From positions 1,782 to 65,781 of the IMG/VR virus record IMGVR_UViG_3300021090_000015: DNA of 64,000 nucleotides, one strand, 5' to 3'. This document shows, piece by piece, positions 4,889 through 22,399 of this stretch (position 1 is the stretch's first letter; each line of letters begins with the position of its first letter). The notes under the pieces are model-generated. The model made no database searches. It was not told the origin of the DNA and saw only the letters and a list, made by a program, of their open reading frames with translations. The position numbers were made by a program, and so were the translations under genes. Origin of the DNA: a virus.

Positions 4889-5437
4889 ATGAATGGACCA
4901 GTGGACCGGCCACGGATTTTTTCACATTTGACACGGACGCGATTTTTGCACATCGAGGATGCGCTCGAGCGCGGGAAGCTGCGCTTCTTCATCGGGGAGT
5001 TCGAACGAGGGAAGGGATCGAGCGGGACTGCGTACGCGTTCCTGGATGTGGAGGATGCGCGCGTGATCCTGAGCGATCTGGCGGACGGCAAGCCGGTGGA
5101 TTTCATCGATTACAAGGGCGGCAAATCTGGAGACAAAATTATTTCCCGCGTGTTGAAGATCAAGACGAGGGAGCAGCAGGTTTGGTTACAGGTGCAGAAT
5201 GGGCAGGGAGTCATGCAGGGCGGCGTGATCAAGCCAAACGGACAGGCAGCCGCGGACATATCGATCCCGTTGACGATGTTCGAGGCGAGGACTCTGGGTC
5301 ATGCGTGTATGGCGTATTTGAGGGTATGGGAGGTGGGGAAATACATTTCACCACTAAGTGGCACAATCCCGCTCTCTGCCCAAAGGGAGAATGAAGAGAG
5401 CGGGACAAAGGAACACGAAGGAGATAGTAATCAGTGA
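4889..5437 (+). CDS. Conserved hypothetical phage protein (homolog of 39359..39850)
   Basis: FSHLTRTRFLHIEDALERGKLRFF identical in both copies. Confidence 0.75.
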   Translation: MNGPVDRPRIFSHLTRTRFLHIEDALERGKLRFFIGEFERGKGSSGTAYAFLDVEDARVILSDLADGKPVDFIDYKGGKSGDKIISRVLKIKTREQQVWLQVQNGQGVMQGGVIKPNGQAAADISIPLTMFEARTLGHACMAYLRVWEVGKYISPLSGTIPLSAQRENEESGTKEHEGDSNQ

Positions 5438-6234: not shown

Positions 6235-7101
6235 TTATGCGAGGGCGTCGAAGAAATCTACTTCATGAACAATGACGATCTGTTTTCCCTGCTGGCGAAG
6301 TTGGATCACTTTTTCAATTTTACGACCGTAGCATGAATATGCCCAACATGGATTTCCTTGAGAACCAACCACAAGGTAGTTTAGGCGAGGTGACACATCT
6401 CGAACAACTTTCGCTCCGCGATCCAATACCATGATCTGCATCTCTTCACGGGTGGCGCGTTCTGATTCGCCGGTGAAACAGAATCGTTGATCTTCAAAAA
6501 CGATCTCAGGCGCTACTGCACAAATCCCAACCAGAGGTTTTATCTCTGCTGATGGAGAAGCGACACTTAAACTACCGGTAGTAAATCCGCCGAAAAATTC
6601 AAGTAGTGCTTTTTGTTCCTTGGGATCGATCCAATTATCTTTTAGAGCCGAAGTGATTAGGCTATCGACCTCATCATAGGGCCAGCATTTGCGAAGATGA
6701 TCATTATCGGCGATCCAGGATGAGAGCTTTTCAACTTCTTCTTCGGTGATCACGCTATCTGCAGCGATAGCGCCCAGGATGCCCTGCAAACGTTGGATGT
6801 CTGCTGTGACCTGGTTGTAATATTCCGTCGATCGCAATTTCTCGCAAAGCCAAGTGAGATCTTCATGCTCTTCATCCGATAAAACGCCATCTGCCATGGC
6901 GTCGATCAGAGGCGGGACTAGCTCGTTATATGGATGCCGATTCGCAAGGCTTTTGTTTTCGTCCACCCATTTGGCAAGCAATTCCCATTCCTGGATACTG
7001 ACGGTCCGATCCGCGGCAATGCCTTCGAGAATGCCCAGTAAGGTATTGATGGCTTTATCTAGGCAGGCTTTCGTGGTGTATTGGAAATAATCTTTGGACA
7101 T
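6235..7101 (-). CDS. BRCT-domain protein with duplicated TerB-like helical N-terminus
   Basis: C-terminal FCFTG...RGA...VS..LNYLVVG...W..S.YGRKIEK...IVHE.DF is a typical BRCT; two N-terminal L.GI..AI.AD..I...E repeats. Confidence 0.8.
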   Translation of the reverse strand: MSKDYFQYTTKACLDKAINTLLGILEGIAADRTVSIQEWELLAKWVDENKSLANRHPYNELVPPLIDAMADGVLSDEEHEDLTWLCEKLRSTEYYNQVTADIQRLQGILGAIAADSVITEEEVEKLSSWIADNDHLRKCWPYDEVDSLITSALKDNWIDPKEQKALLEFFGGFTTGSLSVASPSAEIKPLVGICAVAPEIVFEDQRFCFTGESERATREEMQIMVLDRGAKVVRDVSPRLNYLVVGSQGNPCWAYSCYGRKIEKVIQLRQQGKQIVIVHEVDFFDALA

Positions 7102-7144
7102 GGCTGCACCCTTTCTCCGGTTGATGCGTCTTATATGTTGCCTC

Positions 7145-7173
7145 TTGACAGCAGTGGATAAGGCGGATAAGAT
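7145..7173 (+). promoter_or_regulatory. Sigma70-type promoter for leaderless HTH gene
   Basis: TTGACA-17-TAAGAT with ATG 6 nt later; same layout at 43489-43518. Confidence 0.65.
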
Positions 7174-7179
7174 AAGCGC

Positions 7180-7392
7180 ATGAACAAAAAGGATCTAATG
7201 ACTGTTCCAGAATTCGCCGCTGAAATAGGCATGGCGCGCAATACGGTGACTCGATGGGTGCAGGCTGGCAAGATAAAGGGCTTCAAAAAAGATCCTTTTC
7301 AAGCCAGGACCTCACCCGTTTTTATTCCACGCAGCGAACTTGAGCGAGTGAAGAAGTTGATCGAGCAGCAAGAGAAAGAGTTTGGTTCATAG
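7180..7392 (+). CDS. Excisionase-like HTH protein
   Basis: MTVPEFAAEIGMARNTVTRWVQAGKI; points toward att; close homolog 43526..43723. Confidence 0.8.
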   Translation: MNKKDLMTVPEFAAEIGMARNTVTRWVQAGKIKGFKKDPFQARTSPVFIPRSELERVKKLIEQQEKEFGS

Positions 7393-7413
7393 CGCTGGCC
7401 ATTAAAAAGCAGA

Positions 7414-7437
7414 GCGCCTGCTCTAGCAAGCAGGCGC
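7414..7437 (-). terminator. Terminator hairpin downstream of the tRNA fragment
   Basis: GCGCCTGCT-6-AGCAGGCGC with A-tract to its left; covarying copy GCGCCCGCT/AGCGGGCGC at 44224-44248. Confidence 0.6.
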
Positions 7438-7508
7438 CCGAGCAATGGCTGGGTGTAAGGTAATCGCAGTACCTTAACAACTGAATAGTTCAGTAATTTC
7501 CCAGACAA

Positions 7509-7557
7509 AGCGGGTGATGGGACTCGAACCCACGATATCTTGCTTGGGAAGCAAGCG
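7509..7557 (-). tRNA. 3' half of tRNA-Gly(CCC) = att core at A/B junction (not a complete tRNA)
   Basis: Minus strand CG-CTTGC-TTCCCAA-GCAAG-ATATC-GTGGG-TTCGAGT-CCCAT-CACCCGC-T; no 5' acceptor strand nearby. Confidence 0.85.
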
Positions 7558-7627
7558 TTCTGGCGTTCATCCATCAACTTGAGAACAATTTATTCCCAAG
7601 TTAATCTGTGAGAATTATACCCTTCAA

Positions 7628-8476
7628 TCAGACATGCGGCGCAGGATTTTCACCCAACAAATGATCGACAATCAGGTACTTTCTGACCTGTTCAAGCCGG
7701 AGTGTGCGGGTGTAGCGCTTGATCATGTCGGAGGATTTCCAACGTCCCATTTCCATCAGGCTGCGCTCGGATGCCCCATTCAGGACACCCATGACTGCCA
7801 TGGATCGGCGCAGATCGTGGACGGATAGCGTGATGCCGATCCTCCAACCCCATTCGCGAACAATCGAATACAAGCCCTCGGGAGTCAGTCCCTGGCCGGT
7901 CCTGATGTGTGTGAACAGGAAGCCCTGCCCATCGGCGATCCTGCGGAAGGACATCCAACGTGCGATGTGAGCGGCGGTTTGTTCGCCGAAGATGGCAGCC
8001 TCCCACTGGCCGCCCTTGACGATGACTTGCAGGATACGACGCTCCAGATCCGTGTCGGCTTGTTGCAGCCTACAGATTTCCGATTCACGCAGTCCGGTAT
8101 CGAGGGCGAGTGAACAGATGGCGAGGTCGCGGGCGCCCTTGGGATCATAGGGGTCGAAGGATGCCAATAGTTTGAGAGCGATTTCGGGGGAGAGCGAACG
8201 CTGCGGTTTTCCCTGAATGCGTTTGATTTTGGCGGTGAGCGCCGGATGAGAGCGTCCATATTTCCAGGCAAGATATTTTTGTGTGGCTGCCAGTGCGAGA
8301 CACTGGCGCGCATTCCCCCACCCGCTTTGATCCAATATTTTCAATAATTCCGGAGCCGTCATGTTGACCAGATCCTGGCTCCTGGTCAACACGCGGCTCA
8401 GGATGTCCTGATACGTCCGCCTGGTAGAGGCGGCATAAGGGAAGGATGCAAGGAAGTTCGATAGATCGATTTTCAT
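7628..8476 (-). CDS. int: Phage tyrosine integrase
   Basis: TGLRESE, VKGG, HDLRR, MGRW, RYT catalytic residues; adjacent to att. Confidence 0.9.
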   Translation of the reverse strand: MKIDLSNFLASFPYAASTRRTYQDILSRVLTRSQDLVNMTAPELLKILDQSGWGNARQCLALAATQKYLAWKYGRSHPALTAKIKRIQGKPQRSLSPEIALKLLASFDPYDPKGARDLAICSLALDTGLRESEICRLQQADTDLERRILQVIVKGGQWEAAIFGEQTAAHIARWMSFRRIADGQGFLFTHIRTGQGLTPEGLYSIVREWGWRIGITLSVHDLRRSMAVMGVLNGASERSLMEMGRWKSSDMIKRYTRTLRLEQVRKYLIVDHLLGENPAPHV

Positions 8477-9432: not shown

Positions 9433-10353
9433 ATGAGTAACAAAAACAAATTTCTTGCAATGGGCGCGTTCTATCTTCTGATCGGCGTGCTCCTGTTCTA
9501 TGCGGCAAGCCGGACCCTGCATTTTGTGCAGGGTGTGATGGCAAATTCAACCTGGGGATATCTCTTTCTCTTCGCGACCGGCGTCGGTGCAGTGATCTGG
9601 TTGTATGTGTATCTCACGTATGCCCAGGGCGCGAAGCAGCGAGGCATCTCATTTGTGATGGGATTGCTCGATCTGATTGGAGAGCTGGCGCTGGTATACG
9701 CAGACACGATCTATGTCGGTGACCAGGCCGGACTGGTGAAGATGACCAGCGATGAAATGCAATTGTTCATCGTGGTGAGTGTGGTCATGGTCGGCGTCAA
9801 CATCTTCGCCGGATATCTTTTCAAATTGTGGGACCTGAAAGCTGAGCAGGATCAACAAGCGCAGGACCTGGTTGATCATGTAACCGATGCGACGATGAAG
9901 CATTTGAACACGCCGGAAGTTAAAGCGCAGATGGTGAATGAGCTGCTACCCGTTTTGAAGGACTCGATCTCATTGCGTGTGCAGGAAGAGATCTTCTCGC
10001 GTGCAAGCGGCGGGCGCGGACTCGATGCGCGGTCGATGGGCTGGCCGGTGGATGAAAAGCCAATCGAGAAGAAAGAGCAGGAAGTGCCTTTTTTATCGAG
10101 CCTGGCACAGCGTTTTGGATTGGCGAAAAAAGATCAGGTGCCGCAGATGAATCACCAGGTGGCATGGATCGTCAGGCAGGATGGCAAACGCCATCGCATC
10201 TTCTGCATGATCTGCCAGCGCGAGGGAAAGCCGTGGTTCACCGACGAGCCATGCGAGCACGTTTTGAACGCAGATCCGGAACCGGCCACGATCGAGATGC
10301 TGGCAACTGGTTTAAGGGACGCTTTCAGGGGCTCAGAAGAAAAAAGCTCGTGA
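9433..10353 (+). CDS. Multi-pass membrane early protein (homolog 47143..48075)
   Basis: About 4 TM segments, then a soluble domain with C-x2-C motif; strongly similar to the unit C copy. Confidence 0.75.
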   Translation: MSNKNKFLAMGAFYLLIGVLLFYAASRTLHFVQGVMANSTWGYLFLFATGVGAVIWLYVYLTYAQGAKQRGISFVMGLLDLIGELALVYADTIYVGDQAGLVKMTSDEMQLFIVVSVVMVGVNIFAGYLFKLWDLKAEQDQQAQDLVDHVTDATMKHLNTPEVKAQMVNELLPVLKDSISLRVQEEIFSRASGGRGLDARSMGWPVDEKPIEKKEQEVPFLSSLAQRFGLAKKDQVPQMNHQVAWIVRQDGKRHRIFCMICQREGKPWFTDEPCEHVLNADPEPATIEMLATGLRDAFRGSEEKSS

Positions 10354-10463
10354 AGAATTGCCATGTTTGCGGCGAAAAATTCACCACCACCTTCCCCAAT
10401 AAGCTCACGTGCTGTGATGCGTGCCGGCAGAAAAAGAGCCGGATGTCACGGAACGTGCTGTGA
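10350..10463 (+). CDS. Small Cys-rich protein (homolog 48072..48185)
   Basis: GTG overlaps upstream stop; CHVC..F.TTFP.K.TC. Confidence 0.5.
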   Translation: MKNCHVCGEKFTTTFPNKLTCCDACRQKKSRMSRNVL

Positions 10464-10519
10464 CATTTACCGTTCCGCGTGGGTACACGCCCACCCGGAA
10501 AGGTAAATCAGGAGAACAA

Positions 10520-11299
10520 ATGCACAGTAGTCAATTCGAAAATCCCCTTAGTTTATTGAGGCAGTTGAAAGGTGCTCCGATCTCTGTCCTTTTGGCTTGT
10601 TACTGGGTTCGCCAAGCCGTCTCCCATCACTGGCTGGCGGAGCAGACTGGATACAGTGATTATGCAGTTACCAGGGCGCTTGCTTATTTGACAGAGCAAA
10701 ATTTCTTAGCACGTGTCACCGGTGGGTGGATGATCACGGTAGATGCCATTCAATTGCCACTAATGGCGGTGCTTCCTACTGGGGAAGATTTCGACAGTCT
10801 TGGATCGAAAATCGCGTTTTCCGCGATTTTCGATCCTGATGTTGTTGTTAATGATGAATCAGAAGAGAGTCAAAAAAATAAGTCAACATCATTAACAAAC
10901 AGAGCCAAAAATCGCGTAAAACGCGATTTTCAAAACAAGATTGTATCCGTTCAGACCATCGTGAAGGATCCGGACGAGACCAAGGCGTGCCTGGCGGCGC
11001 TGCGTGCGGCGGGGATCCATGGTCAGAAGGCTGAGAAGATCGCCCAGGACCATCACATCACGGTCGAGGATATCCATGCGCATGCGCTGGGTGTGCAAAA
11101 TGAGTTATGGGATAACCCGCAGGGCATGATGATCTATCGGCTGCTCAATCACGTACCGCCGCCCGAGATGCAGGAGAATGGTCACGTAGTGGGGTGCAGG
11201 TGCGAAGAGTGTCAGCTTTCGAGTTTGGGCAGGCGCTATAGCAACAGTAAGTTTGATCAGATTCTGCGCGGGTCAGACGATGAAAGCGAGGAAGCATGA
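10520..11299 (+). CDS. Putative replication initiator (N-terminal wHTH)
   Basis: HTH-like N-terminus, internal palindromic repeats, C-terminal ENGH..C.CE.C shared with 48684..49652. Confidence 0.6.
   Translation: MHSSQFENPLSLLRQLKGAPISVLLACYWVRQAVSHHWLAEQTGYSDYAVTRALAYLTEQNFLARVTGGWMITVDAIQLPLMAVLPTGEDFDSLGSKIAFSAIFDPDVVVNDESEESQKNKSTSLTNRAKNRVKRDFQNKIVSVQTIVKDPDETKACLAALRAAGIHGQKAEKIAQDHHITVEDIHAHALGVQNELWDNPQGMMIYRLLNHVPPPEMQENGHVVGCRCEECQLSSLGRRYSNSKFDQILRGSDDESEEA
10802..10930. repeat. Putative origin: two AAAATCGCG palindromes flanking an AT-rich inverted repeat
   Basis: GGATCGAAAATCGCG-5-CGCGATTTTCGATCC and AAAATCGCGT-3-ACGCGATTTT inside the rep-like gene. Confidence 0.55.
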
Positions 11300-11939: not shown

Positions 11940-12116
11940 ATGTTTAGAAAAATATTTGACTTCAATCAAACCATCAGGAACATTTCCTTCCGGGAAATGC
12001 AGGCACGCCTTGACAGGGATCGGCGACAGTCGGATCGGTTCTTCAAAGTTTTGCTTTGGGTGGCCGTGTATGGAATGGCTGCCCTGGTCGTTGCCAGATT
12101 GCTGATGAGCAGATAA
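11940..12116 (+). CDS. Small protein with C-terminal TM helix
   Basis: 58 aa, GAGG RBS. Confidence 0.45.
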   Translation: MFRKIFDFNQTIRNISFREMQARLDRDRRQSDRFFKVLLWVAVYGMAALVVARLLMSR

Positions 12117-12179
12117 CGAAGGCTTTTACCACCAAGTGTCACCAAGGATCACGAAGGAAAAATCAAGAAAGGATTTGCG

Positions 12180-12410
12180 ATGCATGACATACCGACATTT
12201 CACTTCATACCCGAGATGGTCCATTTGCTGATGTGGTTCGATGATGTACCTGATGCGGGCGATCCGGCGTGCATTTGTTCGCTGTGCAAAAAGGTCATCG
12301 TGAAAGGGGAGATGCCGCTGCGGATATTCCGCACCAGGGATCATACCGAGATCCGCCTGCACATCTCGTGCGCGAACAAGATCATTGTGGAATTGGCGGT
12401 GAAACCATGA
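12180..12410 (+). CDS. Small Cys/His protein
   Basis: CSLC...LH..C motif. Confidence 0.5.
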   Translation: MHDIPTFHFIPEMVHLLMWFDDVPDAGDPACICSLCKKVIVKGEMPLRIFRTRDHTEIRLHISCANKIIVELAVKP

Positions 12411-12712
12411 ACATCAAATTAACAACGATCCTGCAGAGGCAATTGGATCAGGCCAGGAAGAGCGCAGGCAGGACGATCGTCACCACGCTGGGCAGGGGAT
12501 TACGCATCGAGATCAAAACTGTCCCGGGTGAAATCCATCTGACGTTGAGACGGGAAGGGAATTACCCAAGCCTGACTGAATGGGATACGGTGACGAAACA
12601 TTTTCCGTTCATCCTGGTGCGCGTCATGCCGACACTGGAACAAAGGGGGAATGATTTCACGTTGAGCGCACGCTTCAGCGACACCCCGGATCAAGGTCAA
12701 ACCGATGGTTAG
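12407..12712 (+). CDS. Hypothetical early protein
   Basis: Coupled by ATGA overlap. Confidence 0.5.
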   Translation: MNIKLTTILQRQLDQARKSAGRTIVTTLGRGLRIEIKTVPGEIHLTLRREGNYPSLTEWDTVTKHFPFILVRVMPTLEQRGNDFTLSARFSDTPDQGQTDG

Positions 12713-13205
12713 AACCAGCTTCCGGCTGCGCGTGAGCCGATTTTTTCAGGGTCACGAAAATCCGCCAGTGGTAAGACGTTTTACCACCCCAAGGAACGAT
12801 GCGATGTGTAAATTCAATCCCACGCTACCCGAATTCCGAAAATGGTCTTATTTGCCCACAGGAAGCCCCATGCTGATTATGTCCAAACTCATCCATGAAC
12901 CGAAAGACTTACATTCCAACGCACCGCGGCGGCTGGTGGCTGCCTGGCGCAGGGTGGGATGCAGTGATCGAAAGCTCGCAACTCTGCTCAAAGTGAACCA
13001 TTCTTATGTGTCTCAGTTGTTATGGCGCGGGATCGAGCCGGGGAATCCGGAGATCCGCGTGAAGTTATTTCTTCCGAGGAAGAAGCGCGTGCCGCGTGAG
13101 CCGAAGGTGGAGGAGTTCCCAGGGCAAAAGCGGATCGTCAAGATCATCCGATCGATGCACAGGGAAACGACGCGCACTTTCAAACGATGGAAGAGCGGAG
13201 GTTGA
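12705..13205 (+). CDS. XRE/Cro-like HTH protein (start may be 12870 or 12879)
   Basis: SDRKLATLLKVNHSYVSQLL; stop lies 1 nt before the intI start. Confidence 0.55.
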   Translation: MVRTSFRLRVSRFFQGHENPPVVRRFTTPRNDAMCKFNPTLPEFRKWSYLPTGSPMLIMSKLIHEPKDLHSNAPRRLVAAWRRVGCSDRKLATLLKVNHSYVSQLLWRGIEPGNPEIRVKLFLPRKKRVPREPKVEEFPGQKRIVKIIRSMHRETTRTFKRWKSGG

Positions 13206-13206
13206 T

Positions 13207-14196
13207 GTGGCTGAAAAGAAATTACTCGAGCAAATGGCTGAGAAGATTCGCGTGAAGCATTACAGTCTGAAAACAGAGACTGCTTATGTGGAATGGGCGC
13301 GCCGATATATTTTTTTCCATGGGAAGAGACATCCACGTGAGATGGGGAAAGGTGAGATCGAAGCGTATCTGAACCATCTGGCGAATGTGGGGCGGGTGAG
13401 CGCATCCACGCAAAACCAATGTTTGTATGCTTTGTTGTTTTTATACCGGGAGGTGCTGGGGATCGAGATTGCGAAAGTTGAATCCATCCGTGCGAAGGAA
13501 GGAAAGCATTTGCCGACCGTGTTGAATTATGACGACACTGCCCGCGTGTTGAACTGTGTGGACGGTGAGGTTTTCAATCTCATGGCACGATTGCTGTATG
13601 GCGCTGGAATGCGATTGAGCGAATGTCAGCAATTGCGGATCAAGGATATTGATTTTGGGATGGGAACCATCATGGTGCGCGGAGGCAAGGGGAATAAGGA
13701 CCGCACAGTTCCATTGCCAAAGACTCTGGTCAAGGCATTGATGGATCAGATGAATATTGCCCGAAGTTTTTGGAACATCGATAGACAACGCGGGATGCCC
13801 GGTGTTTTCGTGCCAAATGCACTGGACGTGAAATATCCGAATATCGGATGTGATTGGGGTTGGTTCTGGGTGTTCCCGGCACAGAATTATAGTGTCGATC
13901 CTGTAAGAAAGATTCGGCGCAGGCATCATCAGCATGAGAGCGAGTTGCAGCGTGCAATTCGCTCTGCGGCAATCAAAGCAGGAGTTGCTCAACGCGTATC
14001 CCCGCATACCTTTCGTCATTGCTTTGCAACTCATCTACTCTGGAAAGGATACGACATCCGTACTGTGCAGGATTTGATGGGGCATAATAGCATCAAGACC
14101 ACGATGGTATATTTGCATCTTCTCCACCCAGGGGGATGGAAGGGTGTGGAAAGTCCGCTGGATAATATGCCAGTGGAGAATGTTATCCATCAATAG
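13207..14196 (+). CDS. intI: Integron integrase
   Basis: N-terminal HYS..TE.AY..W.RRYI.FH..RHP...STQNQ...ALLFLY; YGAGMRLSE, GGKG.KDR, HTFRH, LMGH, TMVY; IntI-specific insertion PNAL..KYP...W.W.WVFP...RRHH; GTG start with GGAGG RBS. Confidence 0.93.
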   Translation: MAEKKLLEQMAEKIRVKHYSLKTETAYVEWARRYIFFHGKRHPREMGKGEIEAYLNHLANVGRVSASTQNQCLYALLFLYREVLGIEIAKVESIRAKEGKHLPTVLNYDDTARVLNCVDGEVFNLMARLLYGAGMRLSECQQLRIKDIDFGMGTIMVRGGKGNKDRTVPLPKTLVKALMDQMNIARSFWNIDRQRGMPGVFVPNALDVKYPNIGCDWGWFWVFPAQNYSVDPVRKIRRRHHQHESELQRAIRSAAIKAGVAQRVSPHTFRHCFATHLLWKGYDIRTVQDLMGHNSIKTTMVYLHLLHPGGWKGVESPLDNMPVENVIHQ

Positions 14197-14216
14197 ATGG
14201 ATAAGGATAGTTCGTC
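14183..14216 (+). other. Candidate attI region
   Basis: Perfect inverted repeat TTATCCATC-AATA-GATGGATAA over the intI stop, then first core G|TTCGTC at 14210. Confidence 0.35.
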
Positions 14217-14313
14217 GGACGCTGCGCTCCCCCAAAGTGCGGGGGGCTTGGTCCGACGAATGGGCGAGCGTGAAACGTTGTAGTTCGGCTCTTTGATAGA
14301 AAAGGAGATTAGC

Positions 14314-14571
14314 ATGACAGACGATGAGAAAAAACAGTATGAACTTGCAAGACTAGGTATTGCAAGATTGATGGGTGATGCCAGCGAAGTTGATAAATGG
14401 GCAGAGAAAGTGAGCCAGACCCGCGCCGCCGAACTACAACGTGCAGCCGTCCAATCCGAGCAGAAATGCCCTTTCTGCGATGGTGATGGATACTGGCAAG
14501 AAGCGAATCAAACGTTTTGGTGCGATATGTGCAACGGGACGGGCATTTCTAAACGCTCGGATGGCGGCTGA
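14314..14571 (+). CDS. Cassette 1 ORF with C-terminal CxxCxGxG zinc ribbon
   Basis: AAGGAG RBS; CPFCDGDG...CDMCNGTG lies within attC1. Confidence 0.7.
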   Translation: MTDDEKKQYELARLGIARLMGDASEVDKWAEKVSQTRAAELQRAAVQSEQKCPFCDGDGYWQEANQTFWCDMCNGTGISKRSDGG

Positions 14572-14587
14572 CGCTCGCCCATTCTAC
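14428..14587 (+). repeat. attC1
   Basis: R'' GCCGAAC; arms CAGCCGTCC..ATCCGAGC / GCTCGGAT.GGCGGCTG; R' ATTCTAC. Confidence 0.75.
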
Positions 14588-14607
14588 GACTCTTGAAAGG
14601 AAAGGTT

Positions 14608-14841
14608 ATGAGCAAAGATGAATGGTATGAAAAACTTCGAGAATGGGCGCGCGAAGATGCACGGCTTGGCAAGTTGCCCTTTGCGCTGATGACACCATTG
14701 GCTGAACACCTTGCAAATTATGAAGCCGTAGAACAAAGCGTGCACTTGACGGGGCTTCGCCGTTGTCCCGCCTGCAAAGCCTTGCTCGAAGAAACGAGCG
14801 TCTATTGTGATAACTGCGGGACTGATACGCCCCGCAAGTAA
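14608..14841 (+). CDS. Cassette 2 ORF with C-terminal zinc ribbon
   Basis: CPAC-10-CDNC inside attC2. Confidence 0.7.
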   Translation: MSKDEWYEKLREWAREDARLGKLPFALMTPLAEHLANYEAVEQSVHLTGLRRCPACKALLEETSVYCDNCGTDTPRK

Positions 14842-14856
14842 CGCAAGCCGTTAGCC
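14728..14856 (+). repeat. attC2
   Basis: GTAGAAC-AAAGCGTGCACTTGACGGGGC ... GCCCCGCAAGTAACGCAAGCC-GTTAGCC. Confidence 0.85.
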
Positions 14857-14876
14857 CGCTCTTGAAAGGAAAATTT

Positions 14877-15170
14877 ATGACGAACGAAGAAGCATACAAT
14901 AAATTACTTGCCGAGCGTCCAGTGATTGTTTCGGTAATGTTGCGGGACAAACATCGTTATCACTACCCGGAGAGTTTAGCAGATGCAATCGCCGCATCCA
15001 GCGATCCGCCTGAGTTGGTGTCCCTCATTTTGCAGAGTGCAAAGCATATCTATCAGGGCGGGCTAACAAAGCGTGTAGCGGACTTGTGCGAAAAATGTGG
15101 CTCACCGTGGGAATCGTGGGACGAAATTGCCGCCCCTGATGTTTGCTCTATATGCGGCACAAGCCGCTAA
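14877..15170 (+). CDS. Cassette 3 ORF with C-terminal zinc ribbon
   Basis: CEKC-15-CSIC inside attC3. Confidence 0.7.
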   Translation: MTNEEAYNKLLAERPVIVSVMLRDKHRYHYPESLADAIAASSDPPELVSLILQSAKHIYQGGLTKRVADLCEKCGSPWESWDEIAAPDVCSICGTSR

Positions 15171-15185
15171 CGCGCCCCGTTGGGC
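15061..15185 (+). repeat. attC3
   Basis: GGCTAAC-AAAGCGTGTAGCGGACTTGTGC ... GCACAAGCCGCTAACGCGCCCC-GTTGGGC. Confidence 0.88.
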
Positions 15186-15233
15186 AGACTCGCCCAGAAA
15201 GCAGGTAATATGTTTGTCGAAATGGAGGATGAT

Positions 15234-15584
15234 ATGAGTGATCCACTTGCTGTCTTGCTTACGTGGTCATTTCCTGTGCGCGAAAAGGTTGCCAAAGCGC
15301 TTGAGCCTTTTTGTTATTTTACGGGTTTGCCACAATCAAAAACTCCCTCTGGCGAATTGAGATTTTATAACGCGATAGATAATTCTGATTTGCGAGATAA
15401 AGTTTTCAAGCTCGCTTATGCTACTCAATATGAGTTGGGTTTGCGTAAAGATCATCGTTTGCCAGAGTCGCAAGCAGAGAGTCTTGCAAATGATATTGCC
15501 GCCCAACACCGCTTTCACCAGACGGCAGGCGGGCGCGGCTCTAAAAAATCAAAATTGGTTGTGCCTGCCGCTGGTAAAGCATAA
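15234..15584 (+). CDS. Cassette 4 hypothetical protein
   Basis: GGAGG RBS; reads through attC4. Confidence 0.6.
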   Translation: MSDPLAVLLTWSFPVREKVAKALEPFCYFTGLPQSKTPSGELRFYNAIDNSDLRDKVFKLAYATQYELGLRKDHRLPESQAESLANDIAAQHRFHQTAGGRGSKKSKLVVPAAGKA

Positions 15585-15593
15585 CCATTCGGC
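15501..15593 (+). repeat. attC4
   Basis: GCCCAAC-ACCGCTTTCACCAGACGGCAGGC ... GCCTGCCGCTGGTAAAGCATAACC-ATTCGGC. Confidence 0.8.
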
Positions 15594-15605
15594 ATACAGG
15601 AAAAG

Positions 15606-16412
15606 ATGATCACTCGTCCGATAATGCGCTACCCCGGTGGAAAATACTCTCTGGCAAAATGGGTGATATCCCATTTCCCGGCCCATGAAACCTATGTTGA
15701 ATTATACGGTGGGGCTGCCAGTGTGCTCATGCGCAAGCCGCGTTCAATCGGAGAAGTCTATAACGACTTGAACGGAGATGTGGTGAATGTGTTCCGGGTG
15801 CTGCGCAATCACGAGCAGGCTGCCCAGCTAGCGATGATGTTGGCATTGACGCCATACGCCAACGAAGAATACCGTCTGGCATATGAGCCATGTGACGATC
15901 CAATTGAGCGGGCCCGCCGGATGATATTCCGCTCATTTGCTGGCCACGGATCAGATAGCGTCACCAGGTCACATGCTGGCTTTCGTGGCCATCGAAACAA
16001 AGAGAGTGGCGTAACCGCTGCCCAGGAATGGGCGAGTTTCCCCCGAGAAATAGCAGTATTCACCGCACGTCTGCAGGGTGTTTGCATCGAGCAACGGGAA
16101 GCAATAAAGCTCGTTCCTGTTTTTGATCGCCCTGACACTCTCTATTATGCTGATCCGCCCTATCTCATATCAACCAGGTCAAGCTCCAGCGTCAAATATA
16201 GTTGCGAGATGACCGACGCAGATCATGAACAGCTGGCAGACGTACTCCATCAAGTCAAAGGTATGGTCATTGTAAGCGGCTATCCATCCGAATTGTATGA
16301 TCGTCTTTACGTTGGCTGGCGTTGCATCCCACACGCCCACCGAGCGCAGAACGCCAAGCCCTCAACGGAGTGCCTTTGGTTATCTCCGAATTTTCAAACG
16401 ACATTGTTCTGA
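15606..16412 (+). CDS. Cassette 5: Dam-like (D12 class) N6-adenine DNA methyltransferase
   Basis: MRYPGGK, YVELYGGAASV, EVYND, YADPPY motifs. Confidence 0.88.
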   Translation: MITRPIMRYPGGKYSLAKWVISHFPAHETYVELYGGAASVLMRKPRSIGEVYNDLNGDVVNVFRVLRNHEQAAQLAMMLALTPYANEEYRLAYEPCDDPIERARRMIFRSFAGHGSDSVTRSHAGFRGHRNKESGVTAAQEWASFPREIAVFTARLQGVCIEQREAIKLVPVFDRPDTLYYADPPYLISTRSSSSVKYSCEMTDADHEQLADVLHQVKGMVIVSGYPSELYDRLYVGWRCIPHAHRAQNAKPSTECLWLSPNFQTTLF

Positions 16413-16413
16413 T

Positions 16414-16468
16414 GTCGAACACAGCACGAAGCGGACGAAGTACACGCCGCTTGTGCAAATCGTTGGAA
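16414..16468 (+). repeat. attC5 (short)
   Basis: GTCGAAC-ACAGCACGAAGCGG ... CCGCTTGTGCAAATC-GTTGGAA. Confidence 0.8.
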
Positions 16469-16479
16469 GGACTCTTGCA

Positions 16480-16647
16480 ATGAATGAAAATACTTTTGAT
16501 GGAATTACTTTTCACTCAGATAGTGAGCTAATAAACTTCTTGAAGCAATCGTATTATGCTCACAAATCCACTATTCGCGTTTTGGAAGTTGACCGCGATA
16601 AATATCGGTCCTTCCAACAAAGCGTGCACCCGACAAGGGGTACATGA
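16480..16647 (+). CDS. Cassette 6 hypothetical protein
   Basis: AT-rich 55-aa ORF ending within the left arm of attC6. Confidence 0.5.
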   Translation: MNENTFDGITFHSDSELINFLKQSYYAHKSTIRVLEVDRDKYRSFQQSVHPTRGT

Positions 16648-16760
16648 CACATGTTTTGATAGACGGTGACGAAGAGCGCACCTGTTGGTATTGCTATGAC
16701 TTTGAACCGTAGGGGCATTCTAAGCAGCCCCCGATCTGCTTATCGCGCGCCCCGTTGGGC
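16612..16760 (+). repeat. attC6 (degenerate right arm)
   Basis: TTCCAAC-AAAGCGTGCACCCGAC ... CGCGCGCCCC-GTTGGGC; inner arms pair poorly. Confidence 0.55.
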
Positions 16761-16789
16761 GTATAATTCCCTTAATTTAAGGAGATGCT

Positions 16790-17026
16790 ATGATAACGAA
16801 AAAGGCAAAATTATTGGCTGAAAATTATAGAAAGTCTGGGCAATCACAAGATGATGAAATTTCTTCGTATTCCGATTTAATGGACGAATTGTATAGTAAT
16901 TGTGATCCTACCCTTGATGAATTTTCAGAGTTGATTGGTAGTAGTCCTTCTGAAGAAAAAAAATATTACGAATTTCATTTCAAAAAATCAATGTGGAAGA
17001 AGGTCATATCTGGCGGGCGCAAATAA
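16790..17026 (+). CDS. Cassette 7 hypothetical protein
   Basis: AAGGAG RBS; AT-rich; stops 2 nt before R''. Confidence 0.65.
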   Translation: MITKKAKLLAENYRKSGQSQDDEISSYSDLMDELYSNCDPTLDEFSELIGSSPSEEKKYYEFHFKKSMWKKVISGGRK

Positions 17027-17028
17027 AC

Positions 17029-17154
17029 GCCCAACACCGCTCGCACCTGACCGCCTTTGGCGTGGGTGGGCTGTGGCAATTCCCCTACTTGATCCATTTA
17101 GGCAGAAGTGCCTTCCGCTATACACGGCGGTCAGGTAAAGCAAAACCGTTGGGC
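17029..17154 (+). repeat. attC7
   Basis: GCCCAAC-ACCGCTCGCACCTGACCGCC ... GGCGGTCAGGTAAAGCAAAACC-GTTGGGC. Confidence 0.88.
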
Positions 17155-17177
17155 GCTTCGTGGCGCAAGGAGTGAGT

Positions 17178-17534
17178 ATGGCAAAAGATTACGAAATAAC
17201 AAAATTAGAAATCGCAAAACTCGACATGAAACCAGGTGACACAATCGCTATAAAAATTCTTGGTTCAAGACCATCCGATAGCGAACTCGCACATATTCAT
17301 CGAGTGATAGAGCAAGCCTTGCCAAACGTAAAGGCAATTATTTATAACGAAAATGATATTGAATTGTCAATTGTAAGCAATCAAAAAACAGTCAATCAAA
17401 TTCGTGCCGAGCATGGCTACTCACCACTTCAAAGCGGTAACGTGTATTCCAAAGCGCGCCCAACAAAGCGTGCACTGGACGCGGCTATCGCCTTGAAAAA
17501 TTGGCTGGTTCGGCTATTCACGCCGCGCCAGTAA
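17178..17534 (+). CDS. Cassette 8 hypothetical protein
   Basis: AAGGAG RBS; reads through attC8. Confidence 0.65.
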   Translation: MAKDYEITKLEIAKLDMKPGDTIAIKILGSRPSDSELAHIHRVIEQALPNVKAIIYNENDIELSIVSNQKTVNQIRAEHGYSPLQSGNVYSKARPTKRALDAAIALKNWLVRLFTPRQ

Positions 17535-17549
17535 CGCAAGCCGTTCGGC
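17458..17549 (+). repeat. attC8
   Basis: GCCCAAC-AAAGCGTGCACTGGACGCGGC ... GCCGCGCCAGTAACGCAAGCC-GTTCGGC. Confidence 0.88.
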
Positions 17550-17648
17550 GACGCTGCGCTCCCCCAAAGTGCGGGGGGCTTGGTCGCCGAACGGGGCGCG
17601 GGATGGAATCCCGTTGTCCGGCTCTTTTCGAGTAAATAGGAGTACCTC

Positions 17649-17954
17649 ATGGAATTGACTAATGAGCAAATCAAATCGCTGGCAATGTTCGCTTTAGAAA
17701 TCTTGGATGATTTCCCTGACATCGGAAATTTGGACGGTGGAGATTTGCAAGATATAGCCGAAAGGCACAAAATTCTTGTCCCGCAAATCGTCTACGCTCC
17801 GTGCCATTATGATGGCTGCGCTTGTGCCGAAATGTGTACAGATGATGAATTCACAGCGGGCGTGACTTGCTATCACATTGTTGACTGGCTAGACCGCGTC
17901 GCCGAACAACGGGATGCAATTGCATTGTCCGGGCTCCTTGAATGCGAACCGTAA
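17649..17954 (+). CDS. Cassette 9 Cys-rich hypothetical protein
   Basis: AGGAG RBS; GCCGAAC half-site at 17901. Confidence 0.55.
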   Translation: MELTNEQIKSLAMFALEILDDFPDIGNLDGGDLQDIAERHKILVPQIVYAPCHYDGCACAEMCTDDEFTAGVTCYHIVDWLDRVAEQRDAIALSGLLECEP

Positions 17955-18065
17955 ATGTCACAATGACCGTTCCCGAAGCACCAGCGCAGAAGCGAAAACG
18001 TACTGCAACGTTTTCGCCGCGGCAAAATGGTTTACGGAAAATTGCCCCAAGAGCGATAGGAACAA

Positions 18066-18302
18066 ATGGCGCGAGCAACTTATCGCGCATTGCACGATTG
18101 GCTCAAGGCTCAGTTTGTCGCCGTTGAATTTGGCTTGCTCACTTTTGAAGATGTATTCTTGTCTCATTTCGAATGGGTATTGCCAAATGGATCTGTGCAG
18201 ACTATCAGGCAATTAGTCAAGCCTCGCATTGAAACACGCGGCGAATTTATGCTTGAGGGCGGCGCGTCCAGTGTTGAGGGTGAAGTTGTTGACGAAAACT
18301 AA
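18066..18302 (+). pseudogene. C-terminal part of a conserved-type phage protein; in-frame TAG just upstream
   Basis: RALHDWLKAQ..AVE.GL.TFEDVFL.H..LP.G motif; the frame continues upstream past a TAG 9 nt before the ATG. Confidence 0.4.
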
Positions 18303-18406
18303 CTTGCCGTTGACTGTTTGCTCCGCGTTCCGGGATCGCCCAGCGACGCTGCGCTTCTGTTTTCTGATGTAACAAAAGAGTCTTCAGTGCGTCACGCCTC
18401 AATACT

Positions 18407-18730
18407 ATGTTTAAATCATACAAACGAAAATTCTTCTTATGCACGGGTCAGGCTGTGACTGTTGATCAACTCTCTCAACATCCAAACAGCCATATCATAG
18501 GTGAGTTATCGTATGTGATTGATGAAGGCCGGAAGGTGACTGCATTGGCAGTGTACGAGCTTTCTCTTTTTGTAAGCGATGTACCAGATGAATTTCCGGC
18601 AGTCCGTGTTGAGATCATCGGCGATGCCAGGCGAATCAAGTGTACTTGTTGTGATCATCGCGAACGATGGGAGATCGGTAAGACGGCTTTTATGCAATTA
18701 TTAAAGAGATCCAATTACACTGCGGAATGA
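18407..18730 (+). CDS. Putative late-gene regulator with C-x2-C (homolog 54707..55033)
   Basis: RKF.LCTG..V..D.LS..PNSHIIGEL shared; last gene before late leader. Confidence 0.55.
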   Translation: MFKSYKRKFFLCTGQAVTVDQLSQHPNSHIIGELSYVIDEGRKVTALAVYELSLFVSDVPDEFPAVRVEIIGDARRIKCTCCDHRERWEIGKTAFMQLLKRSNYTAE

Positions 18731-18734
18731 GATG

Positions 18735-18846
18735 TATAATAATCGCCGCACGGAGTACAACCAAATAACCGCAGTCCTGGCGTAGGCTGGGACACCACGG
18801 ATCGGAATGATGCGCCCGATGACTCAATTGAGTCACCGGGCGTTTT
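18735..18846 (+). promoter_or_regulatory. Late promoter, structured leader and terminator (copy 1 of 4)
   Basis: TATAAT..ACAAC..GCAGTCCTGG..GGGAC..GATGC plus hairpin/T-tract; copies at 22276, 55029, 58743. Confidence 0.65.
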
Positions 18847-18880
18847 GATTCCATCCATTATTCAAAAAGGAGAAACTGAA

Positions 18881-19312
18881 ATGCAATCGAAACTTGAAGA
18901 ACTTCTCAAGGCGCTGGGCCTGCCTGTTGGCTTGGCCGCGGTCATTGCCAGTGTTGCTGTCTTCCTCGGTCTTCCGTTGGAGCAAGCCTTTCAACTCTTT
19001 GCTCTATTGACCGGTGTTCCGTTTGTCATTGGGCTCATCATTGATCTACTCAAGCTCGTTGGTGTGGTCACACCTGGCACATCGGGGATATGGTCCGCGG
19101 GTCTCAATCTTGCTGCCATTCTTGGGCTTTCTGTCCTACTCAAGTATGTGCCTGACTTCGATGTCAATACATGGGACGCGCAGATCCTTGAATTAGCAAA
19201 GGCTGTCATCTTGATCATTACTTGGATTGCTCAAATCTTTGGCACCAAGGGAGCGCATCAATTCTATAGCCGCGGCTTGCGCATTGCACAGTTCAGCTTT
19301 GCCAAAGCCTGA
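18881..19312 (+). CDS. Holin-like membrane protein
   Basis: About 4 TM segments; positional equivalent 55149..55466. Confidence 0.5.
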   Translation: MQSKLEELLKALGLPVGLAAVIASVAVFLGLPLEQAFQLFALLTGVPFVIGLIIDLLKLVGVVTPGTSGIWSAGLNLAAILGLSVLLKYVPDFDVNTWDAQILELAKAVILIITWIAQIFGTKGAHQFYSRGLRIAQFSFAKA

Positions 19313-19363
19313 TCAATGACAGAGCGTGGATGGAGAGATCTGTCCATGCTCTGATGGTGATCC

Positions 19364-19702
19364 ATGCCATATGCGTCATTGCGGAAGTGTACCTATCCTG
19401 GGTGTAATGTCCTTGTGAAATCGGGGCGATGTGTTGCTCATCCATCCAATCATGTGGTCCGTGATCCTGATGTCAAGAAGCTATACAATTCTCCACGTTG
19501 GAAGTCCATTCGCATTATGCAGCTCACAGAGTATCCATGGTGTGCCAATTGTCTGCGTAATGGAATTCATGTCCCTGCGATTGAGGTCCATCACACTGAG
19601 CCACACAAAGGCGACCCTGAGAAGTTCTTCAATGGTCCACTTGAATCATTGTGCAAGCCTTGCCATTCATCAGAGACAGCCAAAGAAGTTGGCTGGCATT
19701 GA
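19364..19702 (+). CDS. Terminase-associated HNH endonuclease (HK97 gp74-like)
   Basis: C..PGC...GRC..H; C..C...VHH...H.G...LC..CHS. Confidence 0.85.
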   Translation: MPYASLRKCTYPGCNVLVKSGRCVAHPSNHVVRDPDVKKLYNSPRWKSIRIMQLTEYPWCANCLRNGIHVPAIEVHHTEPHKGDPEKFFNGPLESLCKPCHSSETAKEVGWH

Positions 19703-19710
19703 TCATTACA

Positions 19711-19788
19711 ACCCCCACCAAAAAAAGTTTTTCATGGAGGGCTTAGAACGGCTGTGGCAGGCTTCGCGTGAAAGAGTCCCCGATCAGC
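19711..19788. other. Candidate cos/packaging region
   Basis: Between HNH and terS; CCCCC..AAAAGTTT..TAGAACGG..GTGAAAGAGTCCCC.ATCAGC conserved with 55816-55894. Confidence 0.45.
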
Positions 19789-19882
19789 CAATATATTTTT
19801 GGTGTATGCCTGGGAATTCATTCAGCATTGAGATGGTTCAACCGGCCAGCAGGCCCGCGCATCGGGAGTCTGTGAGCGCGTA

Positions 19883-20344
19883 ATGCCAACACGAGCCGTT
19901 GCAGCGAAAACGATGAAGATCGGCAAGAAGGGCGGAGGAAAACATTGGACCCGAAAAGAGAAACAAGCGCGTGATCAAGCTGCGAAAGATTTCGAGCGCA
20001 ACGATGATGCGAAGATCAAGGCCCCGGTGTGGATTAGTAAAGAGGGATTGAAGATCTGGGATAAGAAACTTGCTGAGATCAAAGGACTCAACGCAAGCAC
20101 TGAATTATTGGACGCGCTCGATAGTGAGATACTCGCTTTGTTCTGTGATGCGGTGGCACATTACAAGAAGATCGCTTTGAAGAATCGATTGAAAATCGAT
20201 GATCACAAACTCATGCAGACGTACATGCTGCGCATCCAGGGATATTCGGAGCGGCTGGGATTTACGCCAGGTGCACGCGCCCGCCTGGTAAAGAAGCGCG
20301 CAGAGGGACCGGAAAAAGATGAGTTCGGGGAGAAGTTTGATTGA
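19883..20344 (+). CDS. terS: Terminase small subunit
   Basis: P.W....W; LGFTP.AR.RL; position before terL. Confidence 0.8.
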   Translation: MPTRAVAAKTMKIGKKGGGKHWTRKEKQARDQAAKDFERNDDAKIKAPVWISKEGLKIWDKKLAEIKGLNASTELLDALDSEILALFCDAVAHYKKIALKNRLKIDDHKLMQTYMLRIQGYSERLGFTPGARARLVKKRAEGPEKDEFGEKFD

Positions 20345-22275: not shown

Positions 22276-22399
22276 TTGACAATTCCCTTTATGGGGCTAT
22301 AATCTGAAACGTTCTACAACTGATCGCACTCCTGGCGCAGGCCGGGAGACTTGTTGGAGTGATGCGCCCGACGACTCAAATGAGTCGTCGGGCGTTTTT
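22276..22399 (+). promoter_or_regulatory. Promoter, structured leader and terminator (copy 2)
   Basis: TTGACA-16-TATAAT; GCGCCCGACGACTCA-AA-TGAGTCGTCGGGCGT-TTTT. Confidence 0.75.

Follow-up and report, generated by a model that had tools for sequence, protein, structure and literature searches.

Cassette ends in a probable phage-borne integron of Anaerolineae match the pattern expected of integration by IntI

In a 64,000-nucleotide stretch of viral DNA (IMG/VR record IMGVR_UViG_3300021090_000015, positions 1,782 to 65,781; hereafter the window), a gene for an integron integrase, intI, is followed by a row of small genes separated by attC-like sites. Was this row put together by IntI from circular gene cassettes, was it inherited ready-made from a bacterium, or does it only resemble an integron through the decay of a repeat or through chance? 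We concluded that the region from 13210 to about 18315 is very probably a complete integron of the inverted type, residing in a temperate phage of Anaerolineae, with cassettes that were inserted as circles by IntI. The mechanism is already known and ordinary; what is new is the carrier, with a phage-associated IntI clade, its own attI and arrays that turn over.

The integrase and its array

The IntI protein scored 404.9 bits against TIGR02249 (cutoff 265) and aligned over its full length to residues 8-319 of VchIntIA (PDB 2A3V; E 5e-81). The alignment contained no gaps, even across the insert specific to IntI proteins (ALxxKYPN..W..FP), which is present, and all of the catalytic residues (R, K, HxxR, H and Y) are kept. 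The protein is about 50% identical to IntI1 and does not show the near-identity to IntI1-5 that marks mobile integrons of classes 1-5.

Thirteen related IntI loci, 69-81% identical, served for comparison; nine were taken from IMG/VR and the other four from assemblies of Anaerolineae or Chloroflexi (loci used for comparison carry L numbers below). A putative attI lies next to intI, where the cassettes begin, as in a complete integron. Its motif, ending in GGATA-G|TT, is kept in most of the related loci, with L012 divergent, and similarity among the loci stops right after the GTT. This comparison places the probable attI crossover between G14210 and T14211. The earlier note had run the array from 14283 to 17549; both limits have to be moved. 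With the attI G at 14210, the segment 14211-14283 becomes the first cassette and the earlier c1 the second, and at the other end the array continues past 17549. The features of the region are as follows (positions in the window).

13210..14196, + strand: intI, integron integrase of 328 amino acids, on the same strand as the cassettes
14170..14216, + strand: predicted attI; its GGATA(A/G) repeats, two of them direct and one inverted, overlap the stop codon of intI
14211..14283, + strand: c0, a 73-bp micro-cassette without a gene; strong hairpin and short attC-like end
14284..14581, + strand: c1; open reading frame (ORF) 14314-14571 with a DnaJ-like CxxCxGxG zinc motif; attC 14428-14587 (160 bp); last base A, not G
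14582..14850, + strand: c2; ORF 14608-14841, a zinc ribbon; attC 14728-14856
14851..15179, + strand: c3; ORF 14877-15170; attC 15061-15185
15180..15587, + strand: c4; ORF about 15210-15584; attC 15501-15593; last base A
15588..16462, + strand: c5; D12/Dam-type N6-adenine DNA methyltransferase 15606-16412; attC 16414-16468 (55 bp)
16463..16754, + strand: c6; ORF 16480-16647; attC 16612-16760
16755..17148, + strand: c7; ORF 16790-17026; attC 17029-17154
17149..17543, + strand: c8; ORF 17178-17534; attC 17458-17549
17544..17616, + strand: c9, second copy of the 73-bp micro-cassette
17617..18315, + strand: distal array, with c10 (ORF 17649-17954) and perhaps one decayed cassette (ORF 18066-18302)
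18407-18730: phage backbone gene, with homologues also in the second, integron-less phage of the contig

In L001 and L011, homologues of the last gene are found upstream of intI, and the array must therefore end before 18407.

The attC sites vary in length (55-160 bp), and often they are embedded in the 3' end of the ORF of their cassette. We observed this embedding at 14428-14587, 14728-14856, 15061-15185 and 17458-17549, where the stop codon is often found in the conserved L' motif TAAC/TGAC. The variable loops of the c1-c3 attC sites encode CxxC...CxxC zinc motifs.

Cassette starts and their own R'' boxes

In the mechanism that we propose, each cassette would be inserted by IntI as a circle. 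On the folded bottom strand of attC, IntI would cut AAC between its A and C, a position equivalent to G|TT on the top strand, and the cut attC would be joined to attI or to another attC. A cut at this point means that the six bases after a junction would come from the attC of the downstream cassette itself and would pair with that cassette's own R'' box and not with the R'' that they face in the array. Such a match between a cassette's start and its own R'' is the textbook signature of cassette integration, known from the literature on the 59-base element.

The earlier note had claimed this match for every cassette of the array. Its quoted 7-base sequences were all found where it had placed them, at the nine crossovers (14283, 14581, 14850, 15179, 15587, 16462, 16754, 17148 and 17543) and at the eight R'' boxes (14428, 14728, 15061, 15501, 16414, 16612, 17029 and 17458). 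We compared the six bases after the crossover (TTNNNN) of each of the eight cassettes c1-c8 with the reverse complement of its own R''. Results showed mismatches of 0, 0, 0, 0, 1, 0, 0 and 0, or 1 in 48, whereas the R'/R'' pairs that face each other in the array had 2, 3, 2, 1, 2, 2, 0 and 1, or 13 in all. The claimed match thus stands, as do the single mismatch in c5 and the A in place of G as first base at 14581 and 15587. When starts and R'' boxes were permuted, 12 of 40,320 arrangements reached one mismatch or fewer (p about 3e-4), and these 12 exist because the boxes of c4, c7 and c8 are identical.

The same rule held at 30 junctions in five arrays, comprising the window and four relatives (L009, L008, L061/L063 and Virus Rctr41k) whose sites were located by profile alone. 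One own-pair mismatch was counted (1 in 180), compared with 51 for the in-array pairs. Across these junctions own pairs had perfect complementary runs of 8.2 nt on average, compared with 3.3 nt for the in-array pairs; in c6 the own complementarity reaches 10 nt. By array, the rule was perfect in 8/8 cases in L009, in 3/3 in L008 and in 6/6 in Virus Rctr41k, attI included; L061/L063 contributed five perfect junctions to the count, and two more were read off besides.

A conserved L'' motif, which pairs with L', comes after each R'', and for this reason the R'' boxes were not free picks. Profiles of the attC end motifs matched only the + strand downstream of intI, in the window as in the relatives. 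Moreover, the R''-L'' motif is kept as DNA but is read in different frames (frame 0 in c2, frame +1 in c3), so that the constraint acts on DNA and not on protein.

We then considered the folding of the sites, for which cassettes were circularised in silico and the bottom strand was folded with DNA parameters. The earlier note had made its reading depend on reconstituted circular attC sites folding better than the in-array hybrids. In the window seven of eight did so and one was equal. A stem of the R boxes formed in 8/8 circularised cassettes, with a gain in stability of up to 3.6 kcal/mol, and was mostly absent from the in-array hybrids. Across the five arrays, 25 of the 30 reconstituted sites folded better, 4 equally well and 1 worse (mean difference in folding energy −2.5 kcal/mol; Wilcoxon p = 2e-5); energies are equal because the R boxes are identical. 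In the reconstituted fold the R stem leads into an internal loop, beyond which come an L stem interrupted by single-base bulges and, last, a variable loop. Ten of the single-base bulges in the L region lay on the 3' arm of the bottom strand and two on the 5' arm. Bulges on the 3' arm match the extrahelical bases of canonical attC sites. The sites have the anatomy of attC, of which a complete integron has two or more, with imperfect R''/R' and L''/L' palindromes, an unpaired spacer, extrahelical bases and a variable loop, and the segments reconstitute attC on circularisation, as mobile gene cassettes do. An Rfam scan of 12000-20000 returned noise only; Rfam holds no attC family. A home-made hairpin scanner, which anchored AAC to GTT and aligned the arms, was neither specific nor sensitive and was dropped.

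Both micro-cassettes follow the rule as well. In c0 the start, TTCGTC, agrees in 6/6 bases with the cassette's own R''-like box GACGAA(T) at 14255; in c9 the start, TTCGGC, agrees in 6/6 with the R'' box GCCGAAC of that cassette at 17586. The c0 copy is 81.6% identical to 17543-17627, and c9 has a fold energy of −28 kcal/mol. In addition to the two copies in the window there are three in L002 (11378-11449, 11826-11885 and 13546-13607), and we also observed the element in L003 (3218-3300). Its hairpin is closed by the cassette's own R'/R'' pair and is followed by the very short attC-like end, and it is often the first cassette after attI. The micro-cassette could have a role as a regulatory element or a terminator, or it could be a minimal cassette of a selfish kind.

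Cassette turnover and alternative readings

As a further check, the earlier note had named a search for the same cassettes with other neighbours. The c8 cassette recurs in this way in the L061 array. The two are 76% identical in nucleotide sequence (window 17143-17545, L061 7966-8371). The homology takes in exactly one cassette with its leader and stops at the cassette ends, and the cassettes on either side are unrelated. At the protein level this c8 homologue, in a contig from ENA, is 68% identical. Turnover was also seen between L007 and L009, which come from two samples. They share a backbone of 10,996 nt, 99.97% identical, that ends a few bases past the attI crossover, and beyond it they carry different cassettes. 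The attC of c7 is 76% identical to that of the first L007 cassette. A tblastn search of all window cassettes against 60 fetched loci found relatives only for c8 and for c5 (weak methyltransferase matches), the others being orphans.

The phage-associated IntI proteins form one clade (support 94/99 for the core, 93/69 with Virus Rctr41k). The clade spans more than 10 contigs, of Anaerolineae type, and wherever context was available it was seen only beside phage genes. The nearest IntI outside it is only 54% identical. Three placements were found. The order intI, array, small terminase (TerS), large terminase (TerL) occurs in the window, L001, L008 and L010; the order TerL, intI, array, portal in L002, L003/4, L005/6 and L012; and in L009 the integron lies between replication genes and tail fibre genes. 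In L001 the IntI is 80% identical to that of the window but the TerL only 28%, which suggests that the whole module moves between phage backbones.

A GenBank record holds a further such locus. In Virus Rctr41k (L065, GenBank KX853513.1, 4680-10100), a gene annotated as an xerD integrase-like gene encodes an IntI 53.7% identical to that of the window. After this gene come an attI-like site and at least six cassettes obeying the own-R'' rule; the integron is unannotated in the record.

Of the alternatives, frozen inheritance survives best, and we consider it unlikely. It holds that the array was built in a chromosomal integron of a bacterium and captured whole together with intI, so that the scars predate the phage and are now inert cargo. 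Published phage integrons do look like captured host fragments (PMC9892861), and the c8 homologue sits in an array that has no visible intI and no clear phage genes. Two R' boxes that read ATT and decayed distal cassettes would suit an inert array, and nothing shows activity in this exact phage. Against these points stand an intact IntI, a clade that keeps an attI of its own and was met only next to phage genes, the distance to the nearest IntI outside that clade and the replacement of the array on a 99.97% identical phage backbone in L007 and L009.

Repeat decay or tandem duplication, which the earlier note had set against real integration, is exceedingly improbable. Here the attC-like sites would be diverged copies of one repeat, similar to a repetitive extragenic palindrome (REP), and the matches between starts and R'' boxes would be by-products. 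The sites do share a consensus, and the R boxes of c4, c7 and c8 are identical. Decay predicts in-array arms that co-evolve, whereas the 30 junctions gave 51 mismatches in-array and 1 across cassettes; the cassette bodies are mutually unrelated, and IntI and attI are both present. The claim of the earlier note that the array was built by real integration is thus borne out by the own-R'' rule, the folds, and the turnover seen for c8 and in L007/L009. Chance need hardly be entertained. About 7% of 300-bp stretches contain any one arbitrary 6-mer, which could be picked there as complementary, but 8/8 R'' boxes lie at a fixed distance from the conserved L'' motif, the rule holds at relatives' sites located by profile alone, and the match extends beyond 6 nt.

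Several points weigh against insertion of these cassettes by IntI within the phage. Recombination in this very phage was not seen directly, and no circular cassette or clean excision joint was recovered from the contigs of two freshwater-sediment runs over 13000-19000. Many short pieces in the run contigs joined attC-like stretches, but these candidate joints were rejected, since unitigs break in or near attC and the sides were short (20-30 nt) or the inserts of unknown sequence. Run X2 gave no cover over c10, which proves nothing. The attC sites were defined by profiles built on their own motifs and by folds. The distal cassettes, past 17616, reach only 5/6 by the own-R'' rule and have atypical, very short attC-like ends. 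For c10 an R''-like box at 17901 or 17904 matches its own start in 5/6 bases, and the alternative crossovers G17613 and G17616 give 5/6 each; a possible decayed last cassette, c11, has an R'-like GTTGACT at 18309, and the boundaries given for both are tentative.

Two junctions, at 14581 and 15587, read ATT instead of GTT and are possibly poor substrates. The A belongs to the upstream attC, as its last base, and so has no bearing on the own-R'' rule. ATT junctions (bottom strand AAT) were also seen in L002 at 12262 and 16381. They may lower excision and so effectively fuse the neighbours c1+c2 and c4+c5.

Finally, no cassette promoter was found, a consensus promoter and terminator scan of the array being not above shuffled expectation. 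Cassettes were possibly expressed by read-through from intI or from a phage early operon. The earlier note had described a CTCTT(G) leader shared by several cassettes, and this was borne out in part; an exact CTCTTG follows the crossover in c2, c3 and c6 (about 0.08 exact matches expected by chance), and c1 and c10 have only TCTTT variants. In relatives, we observed strong sigma-70-like promoters right after R' at cassette starts (L003 3906-3950; L001 12278-12320; L008 1228-1270; L005 11008-11070), with the layout CTCTTGAC, about 17 nt, TATAAT. The CTCTTG leader of c2, c3 and c6 may be related to them.

Integration of circular cassettes by IntI remains the reading that we prefer. On comparisons of arrays, IntI would have catalysed both attI x attC and attC x attC recombination, the array would record at least ten separate insertions or reshufflings, and we infer that recombination took place while the integron was phage-resident and is probably still active in this phage.

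The phage carrier, its cargo and known systems

The window is part of a single 67,683-bp contig from a freshwater-sediment metagenome. In this contig two or three related phage genomes follow one another and share blocks of 70-84% nucleotide identity at a spacing of about 36 kb; they are either tandem prophages or an assembly walk across strains. The integron is found only in the first phage unit, where 2-3 kb separate it from the small and large terminase genes downstream; the second unit lacks it. Landmarks of the units are as follows.

7628-8476, − strand: tyrosine integrase of the first phage unit
20341-27790: large terminase, portal, protease and major capsid genes of the first phage unit
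56397: second large terminase

Two pairs of direct repeats were also seen, at 2012-2084 and 5350-5422 (73 bp, 90% identity) and at 18762-18846 and 22317-22398 (85 bp, 78% identity). The carrier is a temperate phage of Anaerolineae (Chloroflexota). This host was assigned from the close relatives found in assemblies of that group, among them a 100-kb contig of Chloroflexi bacterium CFX6.

The c5 methyltransferase matched PF02086 (1.5e-16) and phrog_56 (1.3e-63), and the zinc-binding motifs of c1 and c2 are encoded inside their attC sites. The other window cassettes had no family match in our family searches. The first cassette of L007 encodes a DPPF motif typical of DNA methyltransferases, read by eye from the sequence. 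In Virus Rctr41k, the run of small genes downstream of intI includes two annotated methyltransferase-like genes, one (6792-7991) between located attC sites and the other (10114-10842) after the last of them. Methyltransferase and zinc-ribbon cassettes plausibly serve anti-restriction or anti-defence functions.

We are evenly divided on a wider proposal, namely that these integrons are no stray pieces of a host but a phage-adapted lineage. It would give phages of Anaerolineae a swap-in slot for accessory genes, and the slot would exchange cassettes with other arrays of the community. The proposal draws on the separate IntI clade, the attI overlapping the intI stop codon, the three positions around packaging and replication modules, and a cargo that includes DNA methyltransferases and small zinc-ribbon proteins. 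If true, the lineage would be the phage-side counterpart of the stores of defence cassettes in bacterial chromosomal integrons. It is the scar that classically proves the one-by-one movement of integron cassettes, and here it authenticates an integron inside a phage genome. Should the lineage be phage-resident and active, phages would own a dedicated site-specific system to acquire and shuffle accessory genes such as methyltransferases, and cassettes could move between hosts in Chloroflexota, where integron biology is almost unstudied.

How does this integron compare with known systems? Inverted integrons are known from Treponema (T. denticola) and others (PMC3607928, PMC4889954). As in those chromosomal integrons, transcription of intI runs towards the cassettes, with attI at the 3' end of the gene, and the cassettes are small, mostly of unknown function, and have canonical attC anatomy. 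In contrast, the window integron is phage-borne and its attI overlaps the intI stop codon. Its putative place in the inverted group, which includes the IntI of Treponema and Chlorobium, follows from orientation, intI lying on the cassette strand. VchIntIA of Vibrio cholerae is the best structural relative, sharing the catalytic residues and the IntI-specific insert, and the V. cholerae array likewise contains duplicated cassettes. The V. cholerae IntI, however, is divergent from its cassettes, and the attC sites of the window are heterogeneous and often lie inside the 3' end of ORFs. IntI1 belongs to the same protein family, but the window integron is not a mobile integron of class 1-5 and has no Tn402 or 3'-conserved segment (3'-CS) context and no resistance genes.

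The nearest published cases come from Qi et al. 2023 (PMC9892861), who reported integrons and attC clusters among 10,705 phage genomes from NCBI. Their cases include host Vibrio array fragments, a class 1 integron in a P1 phage, clusters without intI, and a Shewanella-type integron in a cryptic prophage whose IntI is 95% identical to that of S. oneidensis MR-1. Some of those, like the element described here, are complete integrons, with intI, attI and attC cassettes, within a phage or prophage. The present integron differs from them in having an IntI clade seen with phage genes only, an attI of its own, and arrays that differ between near-identical phages.

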